DNA of 64,000 nt, from assembly GCA_016180435.1 (NCBI GenBank), contig JACPBG010000002.1, positions 60,342 through 124,341 of the forward strand. The letters run 5' to 3'. Shown piece by piece: positions 10,737 through 47,261 of the stretch. Positions within the stretch are counted from its first letter, which is position 1. The number at the start of each line of letters is the position of its first letter. Under the pieces are notes generated by a model. It ran no database searches. It was given only the letters and a program-made list of their open reading frames with translations, and was not told the DNA's origin. The translations under genes and the position numbers were made by a program. The DNA comes from Candidatus Sungiibacteriota bacterium. Lineage in GTDB: Bacteria; Patescibacteriota; Minisyncoccia; Sungbacterales; HO2-52-23.

Positions 10737-10952
10737 ATGAAAAAAGAAAAAAATTATAAGGAGGGTATAGTCAATGAAAATTTACCGAACACGTTTTTTA
10801 AAGTTACGCTGGATGACGGCCGGGAAATTTTGGCCCACCTATCAGGAAAAATGCGCCTGAATTATATTAAAGTTCTTCCCGGGGACCGGGTGCGGATGGA
10901 AATGACGCCCTATGATGAGACTAAGGGGAGGATAGTACATCGCTTGAAATAA
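10737..10952 (+). CDS. infA: Translation initiation factor IF-1.
   Basis: 71 aa; [62 protein letters not shown] closely matches IF-1. Confidence 0.95.
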
Positions 10953-10954
10953 TT

Positions 10955-11075
10955 TCAATTTCAGACACGACTCAACCGCTCCGGCGGCGGTCTCGCTAAG
11001 GGTCGGACAAATTTTCGTCCCGATTGCGATCGGGATGATCCAAGCAAATTTGTCCTCCCATTGTCTGAAATTTAA
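10955..11075. repeat. MITE-like element, family C copy 1 (~120 bp; TIRs aatttcagacac / cattgtctgaaat).
   Basis: Near-identical copy at 14064..14182 and a diverged copy at 23850..23957. Internal inverted repeat ggacaaattt / aaatttgtcc. Confidence 0.8.
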
Positions 11076-11106
11076 ATTATTTCCTCGCTTATTTTTTAAA
11101 AAATGT

Positions 11107-11223
11107 ATGAAGGTACAAGCTTCCGTAAAACCAAGATGCGCCAAGTGTAAGACGGTCCGACGGAAAGGTCGGCTGTTTGTTATATGCCGCGTAAATAAGA
11201 AGCATAAGCAGAGGCAGGGATAA
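11107..11223 (+). CDS. rpmJ: Ribosomal protein L36.
   Basis: [38 protein letters not shown]. Confidence 0.9.
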
Positions 11224-11242
11224 GGCTCTTACGAGCCAGCAT

Positions 11243-11307
11243 CAAGAACTAAGATTTTAGAACTTAGCAAATTTTCTAAGTTCTAAGTTCTGGGTTCTAA
11301 GTTCTAT
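11243..11307. repeat. Palindromic 'tagaac' element (family A), intergenic between rpmJ and rpsM.
   Basis: agaactaagattttagaacttagc...ctaagttctaagttctgggttctaagttcta inverted repeats. Confidence 0.85.
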
Positions 11308-11309
11308 TT

Positions 11310-11696
11310 GTGAGAATTGTAGGTATTAACATTCCGGATAATAAAAAAATAGAATTTGCCCTCCCGTATATTTACGGGGTTGGTTTGCCGGCTGCGCGTA
11401 AAATTCTGCGCTCGTCCCAGGTTGATCCGCAAAAAACCGCAAAAGATCTGACTCCGCCGGAGATAAACCGCATTCGCGAGATTATTGAGCGAAATTATAA
11501 AATCGAGGGTGACTTGCGCCGCGATATCATGTTAAATATCAAGCGCTTGAAGGAGATTCAAACTTATCGCGGGGCGCGCCATATCCGCGGGCTCCCGGTA
11601 AGAGGCCAGCGAACCAAAACAAATTCCAGGACGCGCCGCGGCAATGTGCGTAAAACCATGGGATCGGGAAGAAAACCAGCAGCAAGCCCCACTTAA
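11310..11696 (+). CDS. rpsM: Ribosomal protein S13 (GTG start).
   Basis: VRIVGINIPDNKKIEFALPYIYGVGLPAARKIL... Confidence 0.9.
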   Translation: MRIVGINIPDNKKIEFALPYIYGVGLPAARKILRSSQVDPQKTAKDLTPPEINRIREIIERNYKIEGDLRRDIMLNIKRLKEIQTYRGARHIRGLPVRGQRTKTNSRTRRGNVRKTMGSGRKPAASPT

Positions 11697-11780
11697 AATA
11701 AAGCACTTAGAACTTAGAACCTAGAACTTAGTAAATCTGCTAAGATCTAAGTTCTTGAATGCTAAGTTCTATGTTGCGAA
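11697..11780. repeat. Family A palindromic element, full-length unit including the terminal GAAG-loop hairpin atgttgcgaagcaacat abutting the rpsK start.
   Basis: aagcacttagaacttagaacctagaacttag...ctaagatctaagttcttgaatgctaagttctatgttgcgaagcaacat. Confidence 0.85.
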
Positions 11781-11786
11781 GCAACA

Positions 11787-12230
11787 TTGGGTAAAAAGCG
11801 TATCATAACTAAATCTACCGAGTCATCCGAATCGAAAAAATCCGATAGCCAGCCGCCAGCCGGAATTTCGGTAACGCGGCGTGGCATACTGCGCGGTTGC
11901 GCTTATATTCAGGCAACTTATAATAACACCATTATTACCATAACCGACGAAAAGGGCGGCGTGATAGCGTGGTCTTCGGCCGGGTCCGTTGGATTTTCGG
12001 GAACCAAGAAAGCCACTCCGTTTGCAGCAGCGCGAGTCGCGGAATTCCTTGCTGAAAAAATGCGTAAAGCCGGTATTCAGGAGCTTATGGTTTTTGTAAA
12101 AGGGGTTGGATCAGGGCGTGATTCGGCGATTCGTGCGCTTGCCAATCAGGGGTTTGCCATTTCGCGCATCAAAGATATTACCCCCATCCCGCATAACGGG
12201 CCGAGACCCAGGAAACCAAGAAGAGTATAA
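11787..12230 (+). CDS. rpsK: Ribosomal protein S11.
   Basis: [45 protein letters not shown]. Confidence 0.9.
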
Positions 12231-12322
12231 AGCACTTAGAACTTAGAACCTAGAACTTAGAATTTATAATTAAAGTATTTACTAAGTTCTAAATACTAAG
12301 ATCTAAGTTCTTTTGCGAAGCA
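12229..12322. repeat. Family A palindromic element, full-length, ending with the tttgcgaagcaaa hairpin just before the rpsD start.
   Basis: Same 5' sequence (aagcacttagaacttagaacctagaacttag) as the 11697 and 52465 copies. Confidence 0.85.
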
Positions 12323-12323
12323 A

Positions 12324-12944
12324 ATGCCAAAGGTATTAGAAAAAGTAGAAAGGCGTCTTGGCGAAAAACTCTTTTTAAAAGGGGATCGTTGCGCTGGGCC
12401 GAAGTGCGCGGCAGTTCGCCATCCGAGTCCTCCGGGGATTCACGGCAAAACCCGCCGTCGCGCTCCTTCGGAATTCGGACAATATCTGCAGGGAAAACAA
12501 AAGGTTCGTTTTCTGTACGGTCTTGACGATCGTGATTTAAATCGGTATGCTAAGAAAGCCGAATCAATGCGCGGCGCATTTGCCGCGAAATTTTTGCAAT
12601 TACTTGAGCGGCGTCTTGATAACGTGGTGTTTCGTTTGGGATTTACCGGGTCGCGCCGGTCAGCGCGCCAAGCCGTATCACACGGCCATATTAGGGTGAA
12701 TGGCCGGCGTGTCAGTGTGCCGTCGTATCAGGTTAAAATCGGTGAAGTTGTTTCCATAAATCCCGGCGCCCGGCAAAGTTCTCATTTTGCCGATTTGGAA
12801 CATCGCTTGAAAAAGTATACTCCGCCCGTTTGGCTCGCTTTGGAAAAGGATCAAGTTGCGGGCAAGGTTGTCGGGTCCGCCGAATCAGATATGTCCGGAA
12901 CGTCCGGCGAACTTATAAAAATAAAAGAGTTTTATTCGAGATAA
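12324..12944 (+). CDS. rpsD: Ribosomal protein S4.
   Basis: GDRCAGPKCAAVRHP zinc-binding N-terminus and the S4 domain (LDNVVFRLGF...SHGHIRVNG). Confidence 0.9.
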   Translation: MPKVLEKVERRLGEKLFLKGDRCAGPKCAAVRHPSPPGIHGKTRRRAPSEFGQYLQGKQKVRFLYGLDDRDLNRYAKKAESMRGAFAAKFLQLLERRLDNVVFRLGFTGSRRSARQAVSHGHIRVNGRRVSVPSYQVKIGEVVSINPGARQSSHFADLEHRLKKYTPPVWLALEKDQVAGKVVGSAESDMSGTSGELIKIKEFYSR

Positions 12945-12950
12945 ACACTA

Positions 12951-13072
12951 GACAGTGATGCCAATCCGATGCGAATTTAATGCCAATTTGGCGAATTGCG
13001 AATGAATTTAAAGATTAGCAATTTGTAGATTAGCATTTTATTTGTAGATTTGCATCATTGCGTGCGAAGCAT
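12951..13072. repeat. Family D ~120-bp cassette (candidate promoter module) upstream of rpoA. Second copy at 29548..29670 upstream of frr.
   Basis: gtgatgccaatccgatgcgaatttaatgccaa...atttgtagattagcat...tttgtagatttgcatcattgcgtgcgaagca present twice in the window, each directly before a start codon. Confidence 0.75.
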
Positions 13073-13074
13073 AT

Positions 13075-14043
13075 ATGAGTATTCCACTTCCTTTAGCACC
13101 GAAGGCCGTTAGCGAAGAAGGAAATCGCGCTGTTTTTGATATAGAGGGGCTTTATCCGGGTTACGGCCATACCATCGGCAACAGTATGCGCCGCGTTTTA
13201 TTGTCATCTTTGCGTGGCGCGGCTATAACGTCCGTAAAAATAGAAGGCGTTTCCCACGAATTTTCTACTATAGAAGGAATTATGGAAGATGCGGTGGAGA
13301 TCATTCTAAACTTGAAACAGCTTCGTTTTCGCTTATATCAGGAAGAACCGGTCATGATCTCTCTTTCGGTTAAAGGCGAGCGGGAAGTAATCGGCAAGGA
13401 CTTTAAACTCCCGTCACAGGTGGAATTAATCAATCCGGATTTGCATATAGCGACTATTTCGTCCAAAAAATCCGGTTTGAGCATGGAGGCCACTGTGGAG
13501 GCGGGCATGGGTTACATTCCGGTGGAGGAGCGCACCAAGGAAAAAGTTGAAATAGGCGTGATCGCTTTAGATGCCGCATTTTCTCCGGTTCGCTATGTAA
13601 ATTATGATGTAGAGAATATGCGAGTCGGAGATCGCACCGATTATAATCGTCTGCGCCTTACCGTTGAGACTGATGGCTCGATTACTCCGCGTGAGGCATT
13701 TTTGCAGGCGGCCAGTATATTGGTTGAACAATTTTCCGTTCTAATCAAGGAAATGGAATCAAGTTCGGTAGAAATTGCACCTTCCGAAGAATATGCGCGG
13801 GGCGTATCCGAAGAGGCGGAAAAATCCGCCGGAGGCGAGGAGGATACATCCAAAATGAAGCTGGATGATCTGAAGTTATCCGGGCGCACCTTGAATATTC
13901 TGAAAGAATCCGGTATCAAGACCGTGGGAGGCCTTTCGCGTAAAAAAGAATCGGCGCTTCGGGAACTTGAAGGGATGGGGGATAAAGGGATGCAGGAAAT
14001 AAAGAAAGCGCTTGGAAATTTTGGAATTACTTTGAAGCCGTAA
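13075..14043 (+). CDS. rpoA: DNA-directed RNA polymerase alpha subunit.
   Basis: EGLYPGYGHTIGNSMRRVLLSSLRGAAITSVKIEGVSHEFSTIEGIMEDAVEIILNLK and a C-terminal alpha-CTD. Confidence 0.9.
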   Translation: MSIPLPLAPKAVSEEGNRAVFDIEGLYPGYGHTIGNSMRRVLLSSLRGAAITSVKIEGVSHEFSTIEGIMEDAVEIILNLKQLRFRLYQEEPVMISLSVKGEREVIGKDFKLPSQVELINPDLHIATISSKKSGLSMEATVEAGMGYIPVEERTKEKVEIGVIALDAAFSPVRYVNYDVENMRVGDRTDYNRLRLTVETDGSITPREAFLQAASILVEQFSVLIKEMESSSVEIAPSEEYARGVSEEAEKSAGGEEDTSKMKLDDLKLSGRTLNILKESGIKTVGGLSRKKESALRELEGMGDKGMQEIKKALGNFGITLKP

Positions 14044-14063
14044 TATTATAAATCTTCGGCTAA

Positions 14064-14182
14064 TTTGATTTCAGACACGACTCGGCGGCTCCGGCGGCCG
14101 CCTCGCTAAGGGTCGGACAAATTTTCGTCCCGATTGCGATCGGGACGATCCGAGCAAATTTGTCCTCCCATTGTCTGAAATC
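14064..14182. repeat. Family C MITE-like element, copy 2.
   Basis: About 95% identical to 10955..11075. Confidence 0.8.
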
Positions 14183-14250
14183 AAAATAGCCTCGATTTAA
14201 TCCAAGCTAATTACGAATTCTAAAATTTCCAACGCTAACGATGAAAAAAT

Positions 14251-14595
14251 ATGAGGAAGTTGAAAAAAGGGAGAAAATTTGGGAGAGAACGGGATCAAAG
14301 GAGGGCGTTACTTAAAAGTCTCGCCTCCTCATTTTTTATTGCGGGACGAATGAAAACAACGGAAGCCAAAGCCAAAGAACTCCGCCCGTATGTCGAGAAA
14401 TTCATTACCCGAGCCAAGGATCCGACACTCGCAAATCGAAGATTCATGCTGCGTTTTTTTTCGAGCGCAATTGTTGATAAAATTATTAAGCGTGGTGAGG
14501 AAATGCGTGAGAGAGCCGGAGGATATACCAGGGTTATTAAATTGGGACAGAGAAAACGAGATAGCGCGAGGATGGCGATATTGGAATTTGTTTAA
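14251..14595 (+). CDS. rplQ: Ribosomal protein L17.
   Basis: RKLKKGRKFGRERDQRRALLKSLASS...TTEAKAKELRPYVEKFITRAK. Confidence 0.85.
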   Translation: MRKLKKGRKFGRERDQRRALLKSLASSFFIAGRMKTTEAKAKELRPYVEKFITRAKDPTLANRRFMLRFFSSAIVDKIIKRGEEMRERAGGYTRVIKLGQRKRDSARMAILEFV

Positions 14596-14683
14596 AGAAC
14601 TTAGAACTTAGAACTTAGAACTTAGATATCTACTAAGTTTTAAATGCTAAGTTCTAAATGCTATGCGATGGAGCATCGCATTG
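14595..14683. repeat. Family A palindromic element overlapping the rplM 5' end.
   Basis: aaagaacttagaacttagaacttagatatctactaagttttaaatgctaagttctaaatgctatgcgatggagcatcgcat. Confidence 0.8.
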
Positions 14684-15009
14684 ATGCAGCTAATCAAATA
14701 CTCGGACGTCTGGCAACTCGCGTTGCGGTTCTTTTGCGCGGTAAAGATCGGCCTGATTTTGATCCGGCGCGTTTTTCCGATAACAAGGTGGCGGTTCATA
14801 ATACCGATAAAATGCGCGTGACCGGAAAGAAGATGCCGCAAAAAAAATATCGGCGGCATTCCGGTTACCCCGGCGGCTTGAAAGAAGAAGCGCTTGAGCG
14901 CCTTTTCGCACGCGACTCGCGTGAGGTTTTGCGCCGCGCGGTTTTAGGGATGCTCCCGAAAAATCGCCTGCGCAGTAGATGGATAAAGAATCTGATACTA
15001 CGTAAATAA
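14644..15009 (+). CDS. rplM: Ribosomal protein L13. The start is uncertain: it is either 14644, inside the repeat, or 14668.
   Basis: ...IDAANQILGRLATRVAVLLRGKDRPDFDP...KVAVHNTDKMRVTGKK aligns to L13. Confidence 0.85.
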   Translation: MLSSKCYAMEHRIDAANQILGRLATRVAVLLRGKDRPDFDPARFSDNKVAVHNTDKMRVTGKKMPQKKYRRHSGYPGGLKEEALERLFARDSREVLRRAVLGMLPKNRLRSRWIKNLILRK

Positions 15010-15027
15010 CAAATGGTAAATGGCAGA

Positions 15028-15062
15028 CAACTAACAACTAACAACTAACAACTAACAACTTA
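15028..15062. repeat. Heptamer microsatellite (ctaacaa) x ~4.5.
   Basis: caactaacaactaacaactaacaactaacaactta directly upstream of rpsI. Confidence 0.7.
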
Positions 15063-15066
15063 GGGT

Positions 15067-15666
15067 ATGCCAAAGGCAATTAAGAAAAAAATAGAAAGTA
15101 AGCCCGTGGAAAAAGAAGCGGAAACGCCGAAAAAGAAAGTTGAAGAAAAAGAAAATAAGATTAAAACCGCGGTGAAAGTAAAAAAACCTTCTAAACAGGG
15201 GGCAGAAGTTCCGGCACAAGAAATCTCGTCAGGATTCTCGGAACATAAAACGGATAAAGCAGAAAAGCCCAAAAAACCGGAGCGTTATTTTGAGGCGGTG
15301 GGCAGAAGAAAAACCGCAGTGGCTCGCGTGCGGTTATTTACCCGGCCCGGGGACTTTACGGTAAATGGCAGGTTATACAGTTTATATTTTCCGACTTTAA
15401 CGCTCCAGCAAATTATTGAGGATTCGTTGAAGAAAATGAAGCTTTTGGGAAGATTCAGGGTGTCAATTAAGGTCTCCGGCGGAGGAACTCATGCCCAAGC
15501 CGAGGCCATTCGCCACGGACTCGCGCGCTGTTTGGTTAAATTCAATCCGGATTTTCGCAAGCGTTTGCGACGTGCCGGATACATTACACGCGACCCACGC
15601 GCCAAAGAAAGGAAGAAATTCGGCTTGAAAAAGGCGCGTAAAGCTCCGCAGTGGGCGAAGCGGTAA
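15067..15666 (+). CDS. rpsI: Ribosomal protein S9 with a Lys/Glu-rich N-terminal extension.
   Basis: C-terminal RYFEAVGRRKTAVARVRLF...RRAGYITRDPRAKERKKFGLKKARKAPQWAKR. Confidence 0.9.
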   Translation: MPKAIKKKIESKPVEKEAETPKKKVEEKENKIKTAVKVKKPSKQGAEVPAQEISSGFSEHKTDKAEKPKKPERYFEAVGRRKTAVARVRLFTRPGDFTVNGRLYSLYFPTLTLQQIIEDSLKKMKLLGRFRVSIKVSGGGTHAQAEAIRHGLARCLVKFNPDFRKRLRRAGYITRDPRAKERKKFGLKKARKAPQWAKR

Positions 15667-15817
15667 TTGCGCTCCCCAGACACGCTGTCTGCATCAATGT
15701 TTATGAGGATTTTTGAAAAACACGGGTTCACGACAAAAGTATGAGAAGCGCACAAATAGCACCGCATACGCGGCGTCTTCAGGGATTTGAAAATAACTGA
15801 ATTTGAACAATAGCCGC

Positions 15818-15850
15818 GATGACCGCGGCTATTGTGTTATTATTACTTCT
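15818..15850 (+). terminator. Rho-independent terminator after rpsI (11-bp perfect stem caatagccgcg atga ccgcggctattg plus a T-rich tail).
   Basis: Read directly from the sequence. Confidence 0.65.
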
Positions 15851-15897
15851 ATGTTACTATTATTTCGGTTCATTTTCATAAATTATGGAGGAAGCAA

Positions 15898-16932
15898 ATG
15901 AGTGATAGGAAAGCACCGTATGACACCAATGAAGGAATTCAGCGTGCCGTCAAAACGTTGCATAAACTTAACGAGTTGGTGGCGAATCGCCATAGGGCTG
16001 GGTATGAAAGACATGAACGACTCAAGGAATTCTATGTCCTTGGACGGTGGCGTACTGACTCTTGTGGCAATTTTGGAAAGATCATCTCTGAGTTTATCCC
16101 GAAATTAAAGTTCCCCCAGATCCCCGACGTTTTAACCAACGAAGAGTTTTGGGCATTCTTGGGGGCGCAAGGGCTTGATGTTGAGAAAACCTTTGTTTCA
16201 AGCGGAATGTCGAACGACCTACCGCCTGATGACATCGTATGTTGTGTTTGCCAGCAGTCGTGGACTATTGAAAATTGCCATGACGTAGTTATCACCCATC
16301 AGCATCAGGATTTTTCATTGTCAGAGTTCGTTGGGAGACAGCTTTGGGAGGTACAACGGGTATACGGTATGCGAATTGATGCTTGCTACCGTATGCAGCC
16401 AGACATTCTTATTCGTAACGATCGATTCATTGATCTACGTCCGGAGCCAGAATTTGAAACGCTCAAAAGGAATGAGCATGGATGGGTGGGCAAAGAAGAT
16501 GGAGTTACGGAAAACTATGTGATTCAGTCAGGTGATGATGGGTTTTTCAACGTCTGGCATTTTCATCATCATGCGTGTAGTCGGAAAAAGCTCGAAGCTG
16601 ATATGCGGCAGCAATTCCGTGATGTACTCACAAAAGCGGGTTTTGCTAACACAATCCTCAAGTCAATTCCGAATCAGTATTGCCCATGTGAGCATTGTGC
16701 TCCGTGGTTCGTGGTACGGACTGAACATGGTACATTTACGATCGGATGGCGAAAGCGCGTCATCAATATCGATTGGAAGGCGACTGGTAAGAACTTTCTG
16801 CCGCTTTTCGACGATCAGGACGTTACGAAAGACAACCACTTGATTCATGCATGGGGTTACGAAAAAGCTACTGAATATTTTACGAGGATTAAGGGGTTTC
16901 TCATTCAGTCCGAGGCGTTAACTCAACGTTAA
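15898..16932 (+). CDS. Hypothetical Cys/His-rich protein, first gene of a putative accessory island.
   Basis: GGAGGAAGCAA Shine-Dalgarno then ATG. Motifs CCVCQQSW, HQHQ, WHFHHHAC, CPCEHC. Codon usage differs from the neighbours. No recognisable family. Confidence 0.5.
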   Translation: MSDRKAPYDTNEGIQRAVKTLHKLNELVANRHRAGYERHERLKEFYVLGRWRTDSCGNFGKIISEFIPKLKFPQIPDVLTNEEFWAFLGAQGLDVEKTFVSSGMSNDLPPDDIVCCVCQQSWTIENCHDVVITHQHQDFSLSEFVGRQLWEVQRVYGMRIDACYRMQPDILIRNDRFIDLRPEPEFETLKRNEHGWVGKEDGVTENYVIQSGDDGFFNVWHFHHHACSRKKLEADMRQQFRDVLTKAGFANTILKSIPNQYCPCEHCAPWFVVRTEHGTFTIGWRKRVINIDWKATGKNFLPLFDDQDVTKDNHLIHAWGYEKATEYFTRIKGFLIQSEALTQR

Positions 16933-17039
16933 ACAAGACTGCCTGGCTCTGCCAGCAGTTTTTATTTTCAAAAACCTAAAGTCCACCACGCCTCAAAGCA
17001 TTGCAGTGGGCGAAGAGATAGACTAGCTTTCGTATGTTG

Positions 17040-17080
17040 ACCCCAAAGACCGAACTAAAAAGTTTGGTCTTTTGGGTGAG
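17040..17080 (+). terminator. Hairpin (aagaccgaac taaaaa gtttggtctt) plus T-rich tail downstream of the 15898..16932 gene.
   Basis: Seen in the sequence. One G·U pair in the stem. Confidence 0.5.
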
Positions 17081-17136
17081 GGGTAGGCGGGGAAGACCGA
17101 AATATTCTTGAGTCTTGGGTGGGGAAAAGCCCCTAC

Positions 17137-17192
17137 TTGACAAATTACCGGGATTCCCGGTAAGATTAATTTAATATCTAATTCCCGGTATT
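17137..17192 (+). promoter_or_regulatory. TTGACA -35 box with a palindromic operator taccggga/ttcccggta in the spacer. A second ttcccggta half-site overlaps the Shine-Dalgarno/start region of the GHKL gene.
   Basis: ttgacaaattaccgggattcccggtaagattaatttaatatctaattcccggtatttATG. Confidence 0.5.
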
Positions 17193-17193
17193 T

Positions 17194-18156
17194 ATGAAAA
17201 TATATCTTCCCCATAGTGCATTTTTAGGGAATATTGATCCATTCCTGGCGGCCTTTGACCCTAGCCATAAGGAAAAGCTCGAAATTACCGCTAATAAAAA
17301 TTGGATTTTTGTTCACCCCGTTGTATTAGCAATGGTAGCGGCGTTAGGTTTAACAGTTTATCGAAAAAATATTAAATGTGAAAAGATAGTGGCACGTTCG
17401 GGTCACTACCTTGAAAGGATGGGTTTATTCAAATTTCTTGATATTAAATCAGGGATGAAGATAACCGAACACGATCCATCGGGGCGATTCGTTCCACTAA
17501 CACAGATAAAAACCTCTGAACAACTCACAAAGTTTCTAACCGAAATGATTCCACTGCTTCATTTAGAACCTCGACATGCCGAACCAATCAAATATATTAT
17601 TAGTGAATTGGTGAGAAACGTGTTAGAGCACGCTCGTGCACCACAAGGAGCTATCGTATCTGCTCAATATCATGCAAAAAATAAAACAATTCGCATAGGA
17701 ATAGTTGATCGTGGTAGTGGTATAAAAAGCACAATTAATCAATCATGGGATGCAAGTAATGATCTTGAGGCTATTAAGTTGGCACTTATGCCGGGAGTTA
17801 CAGGAACTACAAAAAGAGAAGGCGGAACAGAACAAAATGCTGGAGCAGGTTTATTTTTTATTAAATCAATTGCTTATGTGAATCGTAATTTTTTTATGAT
17901 CTATAGCGGAAACGCAATGTATAAACTTCTGAAAAGAAGTGGCGCTAAAAAAATTATGCTTCATGCTAACCCCAATCTTGACAGACACTCAGAAAGAAAT
18001 AACTTACCTTATTGGGATGGTACGGCGGTGGGTGTAGATATTTCTTTAGATACTACACAAGAATTTACTGCACTTCTTGATCTTATAAGAGATACTTACT
18101 CGGAGGCAGTTAAAGAGCGTAAGCGTAATAGATATAAAAGGGCTAAATTTATTTAA
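17194..18156 (+). CDS. GHKL-superfamily ATPase (histidine-kinase-like / anti-sigma Ser-kinase-like ATP-binding protein) with a ~110-aa N-terminal extension.
   Basis: N-box ELVRNVLEHA, G1 box VDRGSGI, G2 box GGTEQNAGAGLFFIKSIA. About 36% GC against a ~45% host background. Confidence 0.65.
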   Translation: MKIYLPHSAFLGNIDPFLAAFDPSHKEKLEITANKNWIFVHPVVLAMVAALGLTVYRKNIKCEKIVARSGHYLERMGLFKFLDIKSGMKITEHDPSGRFVPLTQIKTSEQLTKFLTEMIPLLHLEPRHAEPIKYIISELVRNVLEHARAPQGAIVSAQYHAKNKTIRIGIVDRGSGIKSTINQSWDASNDLEAIKLALMPGVTGTTKREGGTEQNAGAGLFFIKSIAYVNRNFFMIYSGNAMYKLLKRSGAKKIMLHANPNLDRHSERNNLPYWDGTAVGVDISLDTTQEFTALLDLIRDTYSEAVKERKRNRYKRAKFI

Positions 18157-18161
18157 ATATT

Positions 18162-18449
18162 ATGGTTACTATCGAACTTTTTCCCTTAGTGGGGGGCTTT
18201 GCGGAAAACAAGGATATTGCAAGAGACATAAGACGAGACCAAATTCTTCCAGCTCTGAAGAATGGAGAAAGTGTTGTCTTGGATTTTAGTGGCATAGAAT
18301 CTACAACACAATCTTTCGTTCACTCCTTAATTAGTGATGTAATGAGGGAATACGGGAGTGACGTTATGGATAAATTAGTATTTAAAAATTGCAGTGAAAC
18401 CATACAAAAAATCATCAGTATAGTTGTGGACTATATGCAGCAAACATAA
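18162..18449 (+). CDS. STAS-like domain protein (DUF4325-like), a putative partner of the upstream GHKL ATPase.
   Basis: 95 aa with a ...VVLDFSGIESTTQSFVHSLISDV... pattern typical of DUF4325 / anti-anti-sigma-like proteins. The 6-nt gap to 17194..18156 suggests an operon. Confidence 0.55.
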   Translation: MVTIELFPLVGGFAENKDIARDIRRDQILPALKNGESVVLDFSGIESTTQSFVHSLISDVMREYGSDVMDKLVFKNCSETIQKIISIVVDYMQQT

Positions 18450-18499
18450 TTTGTCTCAGTTAAAGACGTATTACGGTTCGCCCTGCGGAATTTTTTATA

Positions 18500-18545
18500 C
18501 GGACTTTTTATTTTCTCGCGTAAATTTTATTTGAAAAAACGCGAA
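18500..18545. terminator. Bidirectional terminator-like inverted repeat (ttttattttctcgcgt ... acgcgaaaataaaa) between convergent genes.
   Basis: Seen in the sequence. Confidence 0.5.
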
Positions 18546-18590
18546 AATAAAATGTCATCCGAAAGGATGACGTTTCTATATAGATACGCC

Positions 18591-19148
18591 CTAATGATAT
18601 GGAGAAAATGTCGCCTCTTTTAATCGCCAGTGTAATTTTATTCCCGCTTGATCTTCCGCAAAAATATCTTTCACGAAGTTGTCGAAACGAGCCGAGAATG
18701 GATACTTTTGCAAAGTAAGGTCGGCCAGAAGATGCAGCTTGTCTATCGGAAAGCGCTTCAGGCAAAATACATATGCCTCGGCAATGTCTGATCTTGAGCA
18801 TCCCTCGTCCCTTTCCCGCGGCCAGATACGATGCAGTACTGAAATCATCTTCAGTTTAAATTCGGAGTTTCCGAACCGCAAAAGAAAAAGAAGGAGCTGG
18901 CGGATTGTTCCTGCAAAAAAGATTTCCCAGCTCCTGCTTTTTCGTGCGGCTGAACCTTGTTTATAAAGACCCAATTTCCACCATAGTTCGGCGGGTCTGC
19001 TGTCCGGCATTTTCAGCACTTTCCATTGATATAACATCCAGTCAAGAACGCCGGGAACTGCAACCTCTTTTTGATAGCAGATTTTTTCTAAATCATGAAG
19101 CGCCAGTGGATACTTCTTTTTAAAAGTAGCACTTGTATGCCAAGGCAT
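18591..19148 (-). CDS. Hypothetical protein.
   Basis: 185-aa ORF convergent with the GHKL/STAS operon. No recognisable motif. Confidence 0.4.
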   Translation of the reverse strand: MPWHTSATFKKKYPLALHDLEKICYQKEVAVPGVLDWMLYQWKVLKMPDSRPAELWWKLGLYKQGSAARKSRSWEIFFAGTIRQLLLFLLRFGNSEFKLKMISVLHRIWPRERDEGCSRSDIAEAYVFCLKRFPIDKLHLLADLTLQKYPFSARFDNFVKDIFAEDQAGIKLHWRLKEATFSPYH

Positions 19149-19205
19149 TTATTTATCTCCTATAGCTGGTATGAGCTTCACACAAGATAACAAAAAAACG
19201 TTATT

Positions 19206-19514
19206 TTGTCAATCTTGCAAAATAGTACAGATTATGCTATTTTAGTTTTAGTTCATTTTTCGCGTAGGTGCAATATGTCTAGTTGGCTGGATACGGAAAA
19301 AGGTCAAGAATTTTTCAAAAAAGCCTTTGAGGTTGCCGATTTGCCGGAGGTTGATGGAGATGTCTTGGAGCAAGGCACATACACCAACCGTCAAATCGCC
19401 GAAAAAGCCGGAAGCCCAGAAAAATTGCTGTCATTGCTTATGAATGTATCCGGTGATCGGGCGACGAAAAGATCGATCCTTAGTTTCGCCGTGGAAATGG
19501 ATTTAGAAGATTAA
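19206..19514 (+). CDS. Hypothetical small acidic protein (start possibly 19275).
   Basis: ORF only. Confidence 0.3.
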   Translation: MSILQNSTDYAILVLVHFSRRCNMSSWLDTEKGQEFFKKAFEVADLPEVDGDVLEQGTYTNRQIAEKAGSPEKLLSLLMNVSGDRATKRSILSFAVEMDLED

Positions 19515-19554
19515 GTTTAGTAAGTTTTACCGCATGGTTTGCCCTGCGGCTTTT

Positions 19555-21375
19555 TTATTTAATAAACCGTTCCGCCTGCAGGGACCAAAGGCGTTTATAA
19601 ATTCCGCCGCGTGCGATTAAATCCAAATGTGTTCCTTCTTCCGCTATTTTTCCGCGGTCTATTACTATAATTCGATCCATCTGCATGATGGTGGAAAGGC
19701 GATGGGCAATTACGATCGCGGTTTTTTTCTTAAGCAAATTTTTTAAGGCATCCTGAATCAGCGCCTCTACTTCCGAGTCCAAACTTGAGGTTGCTTCGTC
19801 TAAAACCAAAATCGGCGTGTTGGCGAGGATGGCCCGCGCAATTGCTACTCTTTGCCGTTCTCCGCCGGAAAGTTTTACTCCGCGTTCTCCCACGTATGTG
19901 TCATAGCCATAAGGAAGCCGTGAAATAAATTCATGGCAGTGCGCTTTTTGGGCCGCATCCATGATCTCTTTTTCGGTCGCATTCAGGCGTCCGTAGCGTA
20001 TATTTTCGGTAAGGGTGCGGTGGAATAAAATGGTATCTTGCGGCACCAGCGCAACGGATGTGCGTATGCTGTCTTGCGTTACTTCGGCAATGTTTTGCCC
20101 GTCAATCATTATTTTTCCATTATTTATATCATGGAAACGCAAAAGAAGCGTTACCACCGTGGTTTTTCCGGCGCCGGATGATCCGACCAGCGCAATTTTT
20201 TCTCCGGGCTTGACGCGTAAACTGAAATTTTCAAGCACTTTGCGCTTATCATGAAATCCGAAAGTAACATTTTCAAATTCAACCATACCCCGGGAAACCG
20301 CAAGTTTTTTTGCGGAAGGCGCATCTTTTATATCCGGAGGTGTATTTAAAATTTCCACCATTTCAGCCGCATCGGCAAGCGACTCATAAACTCGGCGCAC
20401 CACCCGGCCAAAGTCCCAGATTCTGTGAAATAGCACGATCAAATACCCTTGAATCAGGGCAAAATCTCCGACGGTAACCTGGCCGCTTGACCAGAGCCGG
20501 ATCCAGGCATAAAACAAACCCACTTCAATTGCGATCATGAGAAGCGCTTGAATCCCGTCAGCTGCTTCTCCGATGCCCCATCCCCAAAAACGCAGGCGTT
20601 TTAATTCATTCATGACGTTACGGTAAATAGTTTTTTCATGATCATAATTGGAAAATAGTTTTATGGTAATGACGTTAGTCAGGGCGTCGGAAAGCGTTCC
20701 GGTTGCTTCCGAGTCCTTTTCGGCCCGGGCCCGGTCATATTTTAATTTCCAGCCCGCGATAAAATAATAGATGACTCCAAAGAGCAAAATCCAGATTGCC
20801 AAAGCAATTCCGAGGACGATGTGGCGTTTGAAAAGAACAATAAGTATCCCGGTAACTATGACAAAAAGCGGAATGATGCTGAATAAAATCTGATCGGTTA
20901 TCTCCTCAAACGAACGGGACAGGCGCGCCACCTTTCTTACCAGCGATCCGGTGAAATTGTTTGTAAAGAAGCGGTGCGAGTGCCCGAGTAGATTTGAGAA
21001 AGCGGTCAGGGACAGGTCATTCATCACGTTGGCCCGCATATATATATTTGCTATGCCGAACAGACGATGTATGGTCCAGCGCGATATTTCCAAAGCCGCG
21101 ATAATGCCGAGGATCCACATGAGTTGGCGGTTGATTTCTGCCGCTTGAAGCGCCGTATTCGTAACCGTGTCAAGAAACATTTTTAAGAACCAGGGCATGG
21201 TTACCGCAATAATCTGCATCGCGATTGCGGACAAGAAGACCACAATCGATGTCCCGGGATATTTTCGGGCGTGTTCCCAAAATACCCGCCATATCAGGCG
21301 AAGTGTATGGCGGTTTAATTCCGGCTTTTTTATTTTGGCGGATGCCAATTGCGTCATAACTCGATTTTTTTCCAT
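19555..21375 (-). CDS. ABC transporter, fused permease/ATP-binding exporter (MsbA-like).
   Basis: Walker A GSSGAGKTT, signature LSGGERQRVAIARAIL, Walker B LVLDEATSSLD, and six N-terminal TM helices. Confidence 0.9.
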   Translation of the reverse strand: MEKNRVMTQLASAKIKKPELNRHTLRLIWRVFWEHARKYPGTSIVVFLSAIAMQIIAVTMPWFLKMFLDTVTNTALQAAEINRQLMWILGIIAALEISRWTIHRLFGIANIYMRANVMNDLSLTAFSNLLGHSHRFFTNNFTGSLVRKVARLSRSFEEITDQILFSIIPLFVIVTGILIVLFKRHIVLGIALAIWILLFGVIYYFIAGWKLKYDRARAEKDSEATGTLSDALTNVITIKLFSNYDHEKTIYRNVMNELKRLRFWGWGIGEAADGIQALLMIAIEVGLFYAWIRLWSSGQVTVGDFALIQGYLIVLFHRIWDFGRVVRRVYESLADAAEMVEILNTPPDIKDAPSAKKLAVSRGMVEFENVTFGFHDKRKVLENFSLRVKPGEKIALVGSSGAGKTTVVTLLLRFHDINNGKIMIDGQNIAEVTQDSIRTSVALVPQDTILFHRTLTENIRYGRLNATEKEIMDAAQKAHCHEFISRLPYGYDTYVGERGVKLSGGERQRVAIARAILANTPILVLDEATSSLDSEVEALIQDALKNLLKKKTAIVIAHRLSTIMQMDRIIVIDRGKIAEEGTHLDLIARGGIYKRLWSLQAERFIK

Positions 21376-22460
21376 AATTTGTTTCTTCTTAAATATATGG
21401 ACCTTGGATAATCGGCGGCAGTCACCAGTTCATCAATTCTTTCACTGATCAGCTCGCCGGTATTTCTTCCTCCGCGTCCGTCAATCTCGGTAAAATATAC
21501 TCCGTCTTTGGTGAGCATGACAATATGAGCGTCGTCGTAATAATACCAGCGCGCATCCAGAATCGGTTCCTGCAGGGTTATAATCTGTTCTATTAGGCCC
21601 TTTTTTTGAAACGGCTGGTATTCATTATCCTGCAGCCATAATATTTCTATACTGTTTTCTTTTTTTAAGATAAGTTTTTCTCCTTCCGTATCAAATGAAA
21701 TTGCTTTAGCGCCTCCGGCCAGGGGTTTCAATTCATTGGTTTCACTTTCTATTATAAAAAGTCCTCCGCCGGCATCCAAAATCGCCAATTCGCTGCGCGG
21801 CGATATGAAAAATTGCGCCGGTATTTTGTCAGAAAGGAAAAATCCCGGTCGGCCCAGCGTTTCAATCATCCCGTTACTATTTAATTTTGCCGCAAAACCG
21901 GCTTCGGTAATAAAAAATATAGCGCCGTCGATATAGGCAAATGAATTCACTCCGGGTGTCAGCACGGTTGTCGTGGCGCGGCCGTTTAGCACGCGGTCTT
22001 CAACCAGATTGTTTTTTTTATCAAGCCGAATTTTACGCGCGGAAGTGGTAGTCGCCAATCCCAAAGATATGATTTCGTCGCGTGTTGCCGTGGCGGTCAT
22101 GACCGGTGAGGGGATCAGGATGACATTTCGTATTTCGGTTACGGCGGCTTTTTCCACGGTTACGGTTTTTGACCAAGGCCGGTAATTTTCCTTTTCCAGA
22201 CGTAGCAGATGTATGCCGGGCCTGATTTCGGTCAATAGCGCCCCGCCGGAAAAAATTGATGTCTCTTTCTGAAATTCGTTGTCCAGAAAAATTGAGATGC
22301 TTGCGATCGTGGATTTTATAAAAATACCGCCGCGCTGCTCCAGCGAGCGTGATGATAAATTGATCGTATAGCCGAGCGAATGAGCAATTACTATCGGCAA
22401 AAGCACGATAAATGCGGCCAGCAGGAGATAAAAAATTTTTTTTCTGGTTGCCAGCTTCAT
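21354..22460 (-). CDS. Membrane-anchored hypothetical protein with a PEGA-like segment.
   Basis: N-terminal TM helix. ENYRPWSKTVTVEKAAVTEIRNVIL resembles a PEGA domain. Confidence 0.45.
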   Translation of the reverse strand: MKLATRKKIFYLLLAAFIVLLPIVIAHSLGYTINLSSRSLEQRGGIFIKSTIASISIFLDNEFQKETSIFSGGALLTEIRPGIHLLRLEKENYRPWSKTVTVEKAAVTEIRNVILIPSPVMTATATRDEIISLGLATTTSARKIRLDKKNNLVEDRVLNGRATTTVLTPGVNSFAYIDGAIFFITEAGFAAKLNSNGMIETLGRPGFFLSDKIPAQFFISPRSELAILDAGGGLFIIESETNELKPLAGGAKAISFDTEGEKLILKKENSIEILWLQDNEYQPFQKKGLIEQIITLQEPILDARWYYYDDAHIVMLTKDGVYFTEIDGRGGRNTGELISERIDELVTAADYPRSIYLRRNKLWKKIEL

Positions 22461-22517
22461 ACTTATATTGTAGCAATTTTGCGGGCGTTTGAAAATAACG
22501 CCTTTTCACGCTACGAT

Positions 22518-23831
22518 ATGTTTATGTCTGTAGATAAATTTATTATTAAGGGCGGTAAGCCGTTGGCGGGTGAGATTGAGGTACGCGGATCCAAAAATGC
22601 CGCGACCAAATTGATGATTGCCTCACTTCTTACGGATGAGCCCTGTGTTATTGAAAATGTCCCGCTGTCGCAGGATACGGATATTACTTCAGAACTTTGC
22701 GGGAAAATCGGAAGCAATGTGGAGCTTGATCGTGATTTACATGCGATTAAAATCCATACGCCGAAGGTCTTGCATCCGGTTGTGCCGGAATTATCGCGGA
22801 AAAATCGCATACCCGTACTGGCTATCGGGCCGCTTTTGCATCGTACGGGCATTGCGGAAGTACCGGTGCTGGGCGGGTGCCCGATCGGGCACCGTCCCAT
22901 AAATTTTCACGTCGAGGCATTGTCTAAAATGGGGGTAGAGGTTGAGCGCCGGCCGCAATCATATTTTGCCAAGACCTCGGAGATCCATGGAGCTGAAATA
23001 GACCTTCCGTTCCCGTCTGTCGGCGCTACCGAAAATATAATCTTATTTGCGGTACTTGCCCGCGGGAAAACATTGATCCGGAATGCGGCCGTGGAGCCGG
23101 AAATTTTCAATCTGGTTGAGATGCTTCGCGGGATGGGAGCTGAAATTCTTTGGAGATCTGACGAGAGGATCATAGAAATAGAGGGAGTAAGCCGGCTCCG
23201 CGGAGTTTCGATAGAAACAATTCCGGATAGGAATGAGGCGGTATCATTTGCCGTGGCCGCCCTGGCAACCGGCGGAGAGGTTTTTGTGCGCGGGGCGCGC
23301 GAGGATCATCTGAAATCATTTATTGCTAAAGCGGTTGATGCGGGGGGATCGGTCTTTGTGCAGGATGGCGGCATTAAGTTTAAAGCCGGTAAGCGGTATG
23401 GGCCGGTTAAAATTGAAACCTCGCCACACCCGGGATTTATGACTGATTGGCAGCAGCCGTTTTGCGTTCTCTTGACGAAGGCGGACGGAGAATCAATAAT
23501 ACATGAGACGGTTTATGAGGATAGATTTGGTTATGTAAAGGATTTGACCCGCATGGGGGCGCGGATTGAGGTATCGGATAAATGTTGGGGTGATATGAAA
23601 TGCCGGTTTGCGGGCGTCTCCGCCATGCATAGTATCAGTATTAACGGGCCATCCCGTCTTCATGGGACAGATATTACCATGATTGATATCCGCGCCGGCA
23701 TGGCGCATATCATTGCCGCGCTTTCCGCTGAAGGAGAGTCGGTTATTACGGGGATTGAACACATTGATAGGGGATATGAGAAGATTGAGGAGAGGTTAAG
23801 AAAATTAGGGGCGGAAATTAGGAGGGTGTGA
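22518..23831 (+). CDS. murA: UDP-N-acetylglucosamine 1-carboxyvinyltransferase.
   Basis: MSVDKFIIKGGKPLAGEIEVRGSKNAATKLMIASLLTDEPCVIENVPLSQD aligns to the MurA N-terminus. Confidence 0.85.
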   Translation: MFMSVDKFIIKGGKPLAGEIEVRGSKNAATKLMIASLLTDEPCVIENVPLSQDTDITSELCGKIGSNVELDRDLHAIKIHTPKVLHPVVPELSRKNRIPVLAIGPLLHRTGIAEVPVLGGCPIGHRPINFHVEALSKMGVEVERRPQSYFAKTSEIHGAEIDLPFPSVGATENIILFAVLARGKTLIRNAAVEPEIFNLVEMLRGMGAEILWRSDERIIEIEGVSRLRGVSIETIPDRNEAVSFAVAALATGGEVFVRGAREDHLKSFIAKAVDAGGSVFVQDGGIKFKAGKRYGPVKIETSPHPGFMTDWQQPFCVLLTKADGESIIHETVYEDRFGYVKDLTRMGARIEVSDKCWGDMKCRFAGVSAMHSISINGPSRLHGTDITMIDIRAGMAHIIAALSAEGESVITGIEHIDRGYEKIEERLRKLGAEIRRV

Positions 23832-23849
23832 TTATCGCTCGGCATTTCG

Positions 23850-23957
23850 TTTTCAAGACACGCAAATTTTTGCCAGCGCAAAAATTTGCTAAGGGTCGGC
23901 GAAGTTTTCCGCCAAAGGCGGAACCATGCAAACTTCGCCTCCCATTGTCTTGAAAAC
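23850..23957. repeat. Family C MITE-like element, diverged copy 3, with compensatory changes in the internal stem.
   Basis: TIRs ttttcaagacac / cattgtcttgaaaa. The ctaagggtcgg core is conserved. ggcgaagttt/aaacttcgcc replaces ggacaaattt/aaatttgtcc. Confidence 0.65.
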
Positions 23958-24014
23958 AAAATGCTTCGCATAATTTCAATCTTTTGGTGAGAGGAGAGGA
24001 AAAGGAGCAATTTT

Positions 24015-25812: not shown

Positions 25813-25909
25813 CCCCATGTCGCTAACATTAAATTGAATACTTGGAGAAAAGAATGGTTTGCTGAAGACAGCCGTCTTCGGTGGGTAGTATTAAAATATT
25901 TTAAATTTT

Positions 25910-29543: not shown

Positions 29544-29547
29544 AAGC

Positions 29548-29670
29548 AGTGATGCCAATCCTATGCGAATTTAATGCCAAGCTGGCGAATTGCGAATAAT
29601 TATTAGCATAATTAGCAATTTGTAGATTAGCATAAGATTTGTAGATTTGCATCATTGCGGTGCGAAGCAC
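29548..29670. repeat. Family D cassette, copy 2 (upstream of frr).
   Basis: See 12951..13072. Confidence 0.75.
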
Positions 29671-30214: not shown

Positions 30215-30430
30215 TGTATTTGCTTAGATATTTCAATTTTCAAACACGATTTGCTCGGAAACTACTTTTAAAAAACTTCGCGCCGACCCACCGTGTCGGC
30301 GCTCATCACGGGTCGGCCTCACTCGTTTCGCTTCGCTCAACACCGTGGCCGTTCGGCCTCCCAGTGTTTTTAAAAGCAGTTTTCCTCGCCTGCTGTATTG
30401 TTTCAGTTAATTTTATTCAAGGGAGGTAGA

Positions 30431-30470
30431 TGGGTTTGCTGAATGTAGCCGCCTGCGGCTTGTTTGTAAT
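30431..30470. repeat. Family G element (gggtttgctgaatgtagccgc plus a hairpin and T-run); terminator-like.
   Basis: Conserved 20-mer also at 31249..31285 and 34449..34490, each followed by a GC hairpin and T-run. Confidence 0.6.
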
Positions 30471-30961: not shown

Positions 30962-31389
30962 GCAATATGGTTTCTATTTTTTGTGTCGAATCAGATTCGG
31001 CACATTTCATTTTAAAACACGTTCGGTTCGTTCAGCGACGAACCTCACTAAGCATCCGGCGATTCGCCGAGCACTCAATTTATCCCAAAATAGTTCCCGA
31101 GCCAGTCGAGGGACTACCTTTAGGGAAGTAAGTGTTGTAACAATAGGTTGAGTGTTCGGACCATGCCGAATCGCTTTCTGATTGTTTTAAAATCATATTG
31201 CCTCAGACCGCATCGCTCGCTTAAAATTTTTACTCAATGAAGAAAAAAGGGGGTTTGCTGAATGTAGCCGCCTGCTTGTCTATCCGAAGTCGAAAGGCAT
31301 AGGAGGGCGGCGGCCTCTTATATAAAAATTCCACCCGACTGGATGCCGGGTGGCACATATTGATTGCGGCGGCGGAGGCGGGGAAACTA

Positions 31390-34166: not shown

Positions 34167-34498
34167 TGGGAAAAATTGTATTTTGCTCGGCAACATTATT
34201 TTGAAACATTTTTATTCGCCCTGCAGCCATAAATTTTCCAGAACTCCTATTCGGACAAAAATAATCGCTTCATACCCCGCATTTTTTAACGGGCTTCGGC
34301 CGCTCCGGCGGCGGCCTGCAGGGTCGGCGACTCGCTCATGCGTAATCATACCGAACCTACGTTAATGGAAAATTTCCGGCAAACAGGGCTCGCTTTATTT
34401 GATTTTTAGAATCAAATTGTCTCGTTGTAATTTTTCCTCATTGTGGAGTAGGGAGTTTGCTGAATGTAGCCGCGTTGCGCGGCTTTTTTATTGATTTT

Positions 34499-35439: not shown

Positions 35440-35603
35440 CTTTTTTCCGCCACGTGAAGGTACTATTGAAATGGTATGGCTGGGGATAAATAAAGTCAAA
35501 TACAAATACTTGCATTGTTAGTACAGTTATGCTATACTGTAATGTATAAGCTTAGTATTAAAACAATATAGGTCTTAGATATCAACATTTCTGTTGATGT
35601 TGA

Positions 35604-35712
35604 CCCCGTTAGAAAGAAACAAACATAGTAGTTCCAAAATTCCAAGCAATTTTTAACACAAGCCACGAATACGGCAATTAAAAACCTTTGTTTTTTTCTA
35701 ACGGGGTTGAAA
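35604..35712. repeat. Family E element with 12-bp terminal inverted repeats (ccccgttagaaa ... tttctaacgggg).
   Basis: Second copy with the same TIRs at 60994..61104. Confidence 0.65.
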
Positions 35713-36003
35713 GGCCATCCATACTCCCAACTTTTTGCATCCGGAGTTTCAGCTTATGATTCAGCAATGAATTAAGACGCTAAAGGTATACGAAATCCTA
35801 CAGCAAATAGAGCACGGCTGCAAAAAGTTGGGAGGACAAGTTTTAAGAGGAGCGAGGTCGTTAATAGTCAGAAAATTCGAAATTCGAATAATGAAATTCG
35901 AAACAAATCCCAAATCATAAATTCAAATGTTTCAAACGTTTAGAATTTAGAATTTTGATATTGTTTAGAATTTAGAATTTAGAGTTTCGGATTTAGTATT
36001 ATA

Positions 36004-47247: not shown

Positions 47248-47261
47248 CGAATTTTTAACTT

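Follow-up and report, generated by a model that had tools for sequence, protein, structure and literature searches.

The closest described systems to the element reported here are short non-coding bacterial repeats of two kinds. REP and REPIN sequences of proteobacteria, mobilised by RAYT transposases of the Y1 HUH type, are lineage-specific, multi-copy extragenic palindromes which lie mostly behind genes, form hairpins with conserved mismatches and persist for a long time with their structure kept. They are thought to double as 3' stabilisers or terminators of mRNAs. The second kind comprises repeats of the miniature inverted-repeat transposable element (MITE) type, such as Correia/NEMIS from Neisseria, ERIC/IRU from enterobacteria, bcr1 from Bacillus cereus and RUP/BOX from pneumococcus. 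These are intergenic, 100–200 bp long, fold into stable hairpins and are co-transcribed with their neighbours, and compensatory changes have been reported for some of them. Here, we describe a lineage-specific family of non-coding, self-folding repeats of about 140–180 nt from a 64-kb stretch of a Candidatus Sungiibacteriota genome (the whole stretch of 64,000 nucleotides is called the window below). Genomes of the Candidate Phyla Radiation (CPR)/Patescibacteria are tiny, and little mobile DNA or regulatory RNA is usually ascribed to them. The repeat makes up about 1% of the window and lies inside core operons for ribosomal proteins, RNA polymerase and the cell wall.

The Sungbacteria family resembles both kinds, and as in the MITE-like repeats, close relatives differ in the presence of copies. 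However, REPs are simple hairpins of 20–40 nt with a GTAG motif and REPINs are inverted doublets of these, neither with a three-way junction or an asymmetric core, whereas the Sungbacteria unit of about 150 nt forms an asymmetric three-way junction and has no GTAG-type unit. The MITE-like repeats possess terminal inverted repeats conserved in sequence and defined target duplications (TA, TTTAT), and they are mostly derived from insertion sequences. In contrast, the termini of the Sungbacteria element covary, no target duplication is evident, no parent insertion sequence is known and it is the central junction that is conserved. The family is uncatalogued, and a full-text literature search returned no account of it. 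What sets it apart is the conserved asymmetric three-way junction, together with a symmetric mismatch module and an almost complete lack of wobble pairs; we file it as a structured intergenic repeat belonging to none of the named families compared (MITE, REP/REPIN, and attC, discussed below).

A preliminary description of the window had reported three copies of about 115–120 bp immediately downstream of infA, rpoA and murA. A search of the whole window with the exact 11-mer core CTAAGGGTCGG bears out this placement: the core occurs exactly three times, on the plus strand only, and Pfam assigned the adjoining upstream open reading frames (ORFs) to IF-1, RpoA and the EPSP_synthase fold of MurA (Table 1). 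Copies 1 and 2 are indeed near-identical (93% over 120 nt), and copy 3 retains ttcaagacac/gtcttgaa as well as the core, while its inner stem changes on both strands from ggacaaattt/aaatttgtcc to ggcgaagttt/aaacttcgcc. The element is longer than first described, namely about 140–180 nt, and the family is not confined to these copies, since the window holds two further, diverged copies and one decayed fragment. The remaining matches of a filter-free search of the window are generic hairpins with equal scores on both strands. This gives 5–6 copies in 64 kb; at least 14 are present in the metagenome-assembled genome (MAG) GW2011_GWA2_45_30, a high number for genomes of about 1 Mb.

Copies 1–3 share one three-way-junction fold; relative to dinucleotide shuffles, their z-scores are -6.3, -6.4 and -9.5. 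The junction is closed by the outer stem P1, which has 18–25 bp and is almost perfectly Watson-Crick. The 9–10-bp 'terminal inverted repeats' of the preliminary description are merely the inner part of this stem (18–21 bp in the window). Outside P1 a second stem, P0, is often present, and in the window it starts on the upstream stop codon or no more than a few bases away. The P2 hairpin varies, but its loop, (C)UCCNGCG(G), is conserved. The long arm P3-P4-P4a begins with a GGG/CCC helix (P3) and carries a conserved bulge of 7–8 nt, RAACCRWGC, on its 3' strand. The conserved unpaired and junction bases are GACACG, CUAAGGGUCGG and CCUCCCAUUGUC; written out, the junction reads GACA-CG, CUAA-GGG-UC-GG and CC-U-CCC-AU-UGUC. 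In all copies the two ends are complementary, yet they vary in sequence even between copies of a single genome; the inner GACA/UGUC alone does not change.

The helices are broken by a two-fold symmetric module, N-UC-G / C-UC-N', which is a tandem U.C/C.U mismatch on the sense strand, enclosed by Watson-Crick pairs. Of 29 copies, 20 have it at the P2 base, closed by C..G in 13 and U..A in seven of them and by a mismatch in none. Furthermore, it is found at the P1/P0 boundary, at the outer ends (CGCTCGCTT) and in P4a, and some genomes have it at the inner P1 end too. Read on the antisense strand, the module is CGAG/CGAG, a tandem G.A in the Y-GA-R context. Such a tandem G.A is a classic stable motif, whereas the U.C/C.U mismatch would be weak in sense RNA. 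A kink-turn formed by the module and a 3-nt bulge was considered and rejected, the strand order being wrong on both strands.

The covariation was analysed in an alignment of 29 full copies from about 12 related genomes, from which the covariance model was also built. Since the search pattern fixed the core motifs, part of their invariance in this set is built in; the pattern placed no constraint on the helices. Of the cells, 90.2% are paired, in comparison to 63.4% in shuffled alignments and 38–50% with slid partner columns. For the covariation score, 0.639 was observed vs. 0.168 (shuffled) and 0.09–0.16 (slid), and none of 500 shuffles reached the observed value. Double-sided changes occur in 34 of 45 pairs, amounting to 365 cells vs. 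126 in the shuffles, and P1 alone shows them in 16 of 20 pairs. The structure is certainly conserved. The compensatory changes first noticed between three copies hold massively in the set enlarged by copies of other genomes. The preliminary description had taken the covariation as selection on a hairpin structure; the conservation of structure stands, but selection on an RNA hairpin is not the only reading, as one-sided changes are rare, G-U and A-C combinations are equally common and the antisense strand is the more stable one. Covariation does not prove selection on RNA, because arm-to-arm copying of DNA or a folded-DNA substrate would give the same pattern. On these data either strand may fold, and the folded molecule may be RNA or DNA. 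As a general caution, strong covariation does not have to reflect selection at the RNA level when wobble pairs are nearly lacking.

Amid these freely covarying helices lie about 35 nucleotides, unpaired or in the junction, which are highly conserved. This would fit a functional small RNA, that is, a new class of self-cleaving ribozyme or a protein-binding scaffold, released for example by cleavage in P1/P0. Many copies per genome are also the pattern of hammerhead and twister ribozymes, and at one orthologous site (L071, described below) the core survives although the stems are fully replaced. In addition, Rfam 15 gave no match in the whole window at gathering thresholds, including the hammerhead, twister, twister-sister, pistol, hatchet and HDV-like ribozymes and the riboswitches, and an ARAGORN scan found no tRNA or tmRNA gene there. 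At E <= 10, two copies searched against Rfam gave chance-level matches only (<=16 bits). However, part of the core conservation in the main set was imposed by the search pattern, and copies found only by the covariance model have degenerate cores. Moreover, the element is dispensable at a given site and an own promoter is not evident, a promoter scan yielding a single weak promoter-like match, at copy 3. A pseudoknot or other tertiary pairing between the P2 loop and the P4 bulge was rejected as well, since inspection of the alignment revealed neither complementarity nor covariation, and the poverty in G-U pairs is atypical of structured RNAs. Taken as a whole, we regard a functional small RNA as very unlikely.

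The position relative to genes was taken from ORFs called crudely as genes. About 22 copies have a co-oriented gene as their nearest upstream neighbour, with its stop codon 0–45 nt before the element, often within operons; it is therefore most likely that the copies are transcribed as the tail of the mRNA. In tandem gene contexts 19 copies are co-oriented and three are opposite, and all three of the latter belong to one locally duplicated cluster in L001. Where two genes converge, the element is nearer to the co-oriented gene in 7 of 7 cases. The window itself has a strong strand bias (55 genes on the plus, 11 on the minus strand), but in L001 both orientations of the element occur within one 8-kb block of co-oriented genes, so that the orientation is not determined by the direction of replication alone. 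Inside the infA-rpmJ spacer, about 20 nt separate the end of copy 1 from the start codon of rpmJ, and this copy would therefore lie within an mRNA; copy 2 likewise lies inside the rpoA-rplQ spacer. The cluster in L001 (3300–4820, minus strand) consists of three copies and a truncated 3' fragment (~4640–4585) with the identical 3' flank CTCGCTTATAGCATAAACTTT. These copies are antisense and stand right before the starts of genes for small membrane proteins (GGCGAGCGAAA-N-TTG). No other clear antisense cluster is seen.

In operon contexts the element lies 15–60 nt before the next start codon, and its three-way junction with conserved junction bases would be in line with a leader controlling the downstream gene in cis, as a riboswitch or as an operator bound by a protein. 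The downstream genes, though, are unrelated (rpmJ, rplQ, mreB, frr, DUF3307 and others), and in the seven cases with a convergent downstream gene there is nothing to regulate. Within a genome, the variable stems of the paralogues are almost the same, as in a repeat and unlike a riboswitch, and Rfam contains no match, the best being Moco at 11.9 bits (E 2.4). A leader function is thus highly improbable.

Comparisons of relatives show gain, replacement, retention under constraint and loss of copies. The spacers infA-rpmJ, rpsK-rpsD, rpoA-rplQ and murA-mreB were compared between the window, L031, L002 and L071, and most of them hold a family member or another long hairpin (z -3 to -6). In L031 (RpoA 83% identical to that of the window; identities below likewise) the infA-rpmJ spacer has a simple hairpin and no element, while the rpsK-rpsD spacer has a canonical copy where the window has a simple hairpin. 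Behind rpoA, L031 holds a composite, a variant-type element nested in a P1-like outer stem, and the same composite is found as copy 4 behind frr in the window. L002 (MreB 89%) has a small hairpin only between murA and mreB, a canonical copy before frr and a different subtype after frr. The murA-mreB copy of L071 (CP066690.1; MreB 92%) is homologous in P1 and core to that of the window, yet its P2 and P4 are wholly different and still perfectly paired, and its flanks cannot be aligned. Only the 3' half of copy 3 is left in L070 (MreB 96%). Thirty more distant relatives (RpoA 37–64%) have no copy in the rpoA operon. At the level of strains, no insertion polymorphism was seen at copy 3, where five contigs with identical MreB are 100% identical across the element; short-read contigs with an identical InfA protein break inside copy 1.

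Element-free spacers of the relatives mostly contain long hairpins built of genome-specific short words, with z-scores of -3 to -7. Exceptions which do not fold are two spacers of L071, rpsK-rpsD (37 nt; dG -0.7, z +0.6) and rpsD-rpoA (z -0.8). In the window, long spacer hairpins are found at nine places (Table 1), including rpmJ-rpsM, rpsM-rpsK, rpsK-rpsD and one after rplQ. They carry tandem 7-mers (AGAACTT/AGAACTTAG) on one arm and the complement on the other. Analogous words in the relatives are GATAAAG and ACGAACAG/CTGTTCGC in L031 and AAACGC/GCGTTT in L071. Intercistronic hairpins made of 'words' peculiar to each genome thus seem to characterise this lineage.

The position, the orientation, the maintenance of structure in each copy and the interchangeability with plain hairpins support the reading as a non-autonomous REPIN/MITE-like repeat, which would be co-transcribed and serve as an intercistronic or 3'-end RNA hairpin. 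We hold this reading, the best of those considered, tentatively, as plausible but short of probable. Here, a copy, lying 0–40 nt past the stop codon, would be transcribed as the tail of the upstream gene's mRNA, and the RNA hairpin would act between cistrons or at the 3' end by blocking 3' exonucleases or as a site of processing or termination. Simple long hairpins apparently do the same job in the equivalent spacers of relatives. The copies would arise and be replaced or lost like non-autonomous mobile DNA, a behaviour suggested by the relatives, which differ in the spacers occupied and in subtype, and by the nested composite and the remnants. A putative trans-acting protein recognising the conserved junction would drive the spread.

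Several observations weigh against this RNA-level role. A U-tract does not consistently follow the element: T-runs stand after some copies (copy 1, L021, L027) but not after copies 2 and 3, and a consensus scan found no terminator at the copies. In L070 half of the element was lost without replacement. Furthermore, a plain hairpin seems to be sufficient in the relatives, which leaves the elaborate junction unexplained by a hairpin role. The pattern of substitutions is also unusual for a structured RNA: one-sided (wobble) changes amount to about 20 cells vs. 365 two-sided ones and are thus about 18-fold rarer, and on the sense strand G-U combinations (23) do not outnumber A-C combinations (32; one conserved loop position excluded). 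Finally, the antisense strand folds more stably, with a mean of -66.3 vs. -62.6 kcal/mol (a gap of about 3.6; 31 copies, Wilcoxon p = 1.7e-4), and has 68 G-U pairs in comparison to 41 on the sense strand. The tandem G.A modules may be behind much of this gain in stability.

Some of these observations would fit a purely DNA-level, structure-dependent selfish element. Here, the folded strand or a T-shaped cruciform with CTCG/GCTC arms would be the substrate of a nuclease or recombinase encoded elsewhere, for example an HUH/Y1 enzyme (RAYT or TnpA of IS200/IS605) or a Rep-like protein, and the covariation would result from arm-to-arm template switching. The almost strictly Watson-Crick helices with similar frequencies of G-U and A-C and rare one-sided changes are in line with this, as is the more stable minus strand, on which the module becomes a Y-GA-R tandem G.A. 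CTCGCT is 14-fold enriched within 45 nt of the elements relative to the rest of the loci, and its same-sense repeats on both arms and at the P2 base are iteron-like. In copy 1 the P1 5' arm takes in the TAA stop and the final codons of infA (GAAATAA includes the stop) and reaches into coding sequence which is also present in L031 without an element and is therefore ancestral, which fits an outward extension of the palindrome. The paralogues L006 and L007, otherwise near-identical, differ completely in their P4 arms. The nested composites, the rapid gain and loss and the decayed copies fit as well.

Architecturally, parvovirus and adeno-associated virus (AAV) inverted terminal repeats with GCTC repeats, which are T-shaped hairpin origins bound by the HUH protein Rep, offer a likeness: a long stem bears GCTC/CTCG tetranucleotide repeats and ends in a three-way junction with two small arms. 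The likeness concerns architecture only; AAV-type origins are the ends of a linear single-stranded viral genome and their repeats are base-paired rather than mismatched, whereas no Rep gene or viral context is seen here, and the core pattern has no match in viral contigs. By its logic, the attC site of integrons is also among the closest known kinds. In attC sites structure rather than sequence is conserved, unpaired or mismatched positions are conserved, the apex is variable and sometimes branched, the site lies immediately 3' of an ORF in fixed orientation, and it is recognised as a folded single strand. However, the R''/R' core sites of attC (RYYYAAC/GTTRRRY) are absent from the bases of P1 and P0, which vary. 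In the Sungbacteria element the apex is conserved and the base variable, the copies lie between essential genes which are not cassettes, and no integrase is present in the window.

The evidence on mobility is less favourable to a DNA-level element. By Pfam, none of 52 ORFs of the window carries a transposase, integrase, reverse transcriptase or HUH domain. A RAYT gene was seen neither in the window nor in loci of up to 21 kb, and no protein family recurs next to the copies except housekeeping genes, for example EF-Tu and EF-G. Solo or split halves were absent from the 547 kb of loci searched, no clean empty site defining the boundaries was found among the compared relatives and strain contigs, and no consistent target-site duplication, for which a check had been advised, flanks the copies. 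That the CTCG/CTCGCTT flanks are duplications from insertion into hairpin loops was rejected as the sole explanation, since the same module is also present within P2, in P4a and at the inner P1 end and is hence part of the element. Moreover, orientation and distance are tied to the stop codon of the neighbour, also in all convergent pairs, the direction of replication alone does not explain the orientations in L001, and under template switching the conserved mismatch modules and bulges would be lost unless something selects for them. A purely DNA-level element is a serious rival, though a less likely one than the co-transcribed hairpin. The label 'MITE' suits the family in part: it is dispersed, small, non-coding, multi-copy and insertion-polymorphic, but conserved terminal inverted repeats and a consistent target duplication are missing, and no transposase was found among the 52 ORFs of the window or near the other copies. 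The two explanations offered in the preliminary description, a structured RNA or a structure-dependent mobile element, remain the leading ones.

The junction and the symmetric UC/CU modules (GA/AG on the antisense strand) might also form a new functional fold which drives the spread of the element, either as a T-shaped folded-DNA substrate of an undescribed HUH-type or other structure-specific enzyme of CPR bacteria or as a new self-processing RNA. Each would be a new class of mobile element dependent on structure and not a passive hairpin; this we consider quite unlikely. If the long hairpins, which occupy most neighbouring spacers, are RNA-level punctuation, they would represent an unstudied way of organising polycistronic mRNAs, and a junction serving a mobilising enzyme as its handle would define a new structure-dependent element. 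In either case the family matters for the quality of MAGs, as short-read assemblies break in its copies, and it is a candidate for an entry in Rfam or a repeat library. It is real, uncatalogued and mechanistically puzzling, yet lineage-restricted and broadly familiar in kind.

Concerning the hosts, an exact-pattern scan with one genome per species gave 28 loci, and a covariance-model search of the window and these loci gave 38 matches, copies 4 and 5 among them. One locus, L023 ('Firmicutes'), is a chance match to the pattern without the fold and was rejected as a member. As judged from protein comparisons, the family is specific to Candidatus Sungbacteria and near relatives within the Parcubacteria group, plus one Spechtbacterales-labelled MAG. 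MreB of the window is 85–92% identical to proteins named Candidatus Sungbacteria or Sungiibacteriota. Several records (CAY.../CAZ...) are titled 'uncultured Candidatus Saccharibacteria bacterium', namely L002, L003, L005, L010, L015–L017, L019, L020, L022, L024 and L028. A spread across phyla was rejected, because two of these titles are contradicted by the proteins. EF-Tu of the 'Saccharibacteria'-titled SRP178908_co1_311 is 94% identical to that of CP066690.1 (Sungiibacteriota) and 90–91% to those of the 'Parcubacteria' MAGs GW2011_GWA2_45_30 and Gr01-1014_33. L002, from the likewise titled ERP119705_co1_800, is syntenic with 22–32 kb of the window, and its MreB is 89% identical. The titles of these two MAGs are probably wrong, and the remaining ones are suspect.

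Table 1. Copies of the structured repeat, their parts, and further repeats and features in the 64-kb window.
Feature	Position	Strand	Covariance-model match	Remarks
Copy 1 (canonical), P1 to P1'	10946..11083	+	139.8 bits	infA stop 10950-10952; next gene rpmJ
Copy 1, P1 5' arm	10946-10966	+		
Copy 1, junction ACG	10967-10969	+		
Copy 1, P2	10970-10995	+		
Copy 1, core CTAAGGGTCGG	10996-11006	+		
Copy 1, P4/P4a	11005-11055	+		
Copy 1, CCTCCCATTGTC	~11054-11065	+		
Copy 1, P1 3' arm	11063-11083	+		
Direct repeat TCGCTT around copy 1	10940-10945; 11085-11090			first unit within infA
Copy 2 (canonical)	14049..14199	+	143.5 bits	begins 6 nt past rpoA stop (14041-14043); next gene rplQ (Ribosomal_L17); P0 TAAATC/GATTTA; TTCG/CTCG module
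Copy 2, P1	14059-14076 / 14173-14190	+		
Copy 2, core	14106-14116	+		
Copy 3 (canonical, 'type B')	23830..23976	+	121.3 bits	P0 starts inside murA TGA stop (23829-23831); next gene mreB
Copy 3, P1	23842-23859 / 23947-23964	+		
Copy 3, core	23889-23899	+		
Copy 4 (diverged)	30228..30412	+	30245-30398, 39.5 bits	behind frr
Copy 5 (diverged)	30987..31222	+	30987-31214	behind DUF3307 gene
Decayed copy	~34263..34407	+	11.6 bits, E 0.6	filter-free window search
Long spacer hairpins	116-188; 752-821; 11237-11305; 11693-11768; 12222-12311; 14595-14662; 52458-52534; 54711-54755; 58765-58804			
Second repeat family, ~110-nt hairpin	12953-13062; 29547-29659			rpsD-rpoA; before frr
25-mer GGGTTTGCTGAATGTAGCCGC(CTGC)	30432-30456; 31251-31275; 34453-34477; 25855-25879			identical at first two
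52-nt repeat GGCCGCCCCGCAGAGCGGGGCGAGCCTCGCCCCAAAGGGGCGGGCGGGATTC	507-558; 54570-54621			
Long hairpins with common stem	35600-35715; 54150-54215			
73-nt direct repeat	47243-47315; 63670-63742			
Paralogous large ORFs	38635-40593; 41377-43101			652 aa; 574 aa

The copies of the window differ in detail. P2 of copy 3 is long, A/U-rich and without the UC module, and its bulge reads CCATGC. The core of copy 4, ATCACGGGTCGG...CCTCCCAGTGTT, is enclosed by the outer P1-like sequence TTTTCAAACACGA...ATTGTTTCAG. Copy 5 has canonical-like stems P1 and P2 but a degenerate core (CTAAGCATCCGG) and an insertion of about 90 nt in P4a, and it shares its 3' end GCCTCAGACCGCATCGCTCGCTT with L012:1597–1749. The decayed copy retains only a P2-like hairpin, a partial core (CTTCGGCCGCTCCGGCGGCGGCCTGCAGGGTCGGCGA) and the 3' sequence GGCTCGCTTTATTTG.

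Other repeats are present nearby. The two copies of the second family are 94% identical, and in the spacer before frr, L002 has a canonical copy of the three-way-junction element where the window has this hairpin. The 25-mer GGGTTTGCTGAATGTAGCCGC follows each of the three variant or decayed copies at a distance of 34–46 nt and occurs once elsewhere; a GGAG-like motif and an ATG precede it, a small hairpin and a T-run follow in some cases, and the reading frame is not conserved. The 52-nt repeat is G+C-rich, 92% identical between its two copies, forms two adjacent hairpins and includes GAGCCTCG. Two long hairpins have a common stem, CCCCGTTAGA.../...TCTAACGGGG, with different inner contents, and are possibly a further repeat family. 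Between rplQ and rplM of L071 (5991–6263 of the locus) a free-standing GIY-YIG ORF of 90 aa is present, which is absent there in the window. The paralogous large ORFs have no Pfam match, contain internal repeats and have a homologue in L006, and the 73-nt direct repeat (79% identical) follows two unrelated genes.

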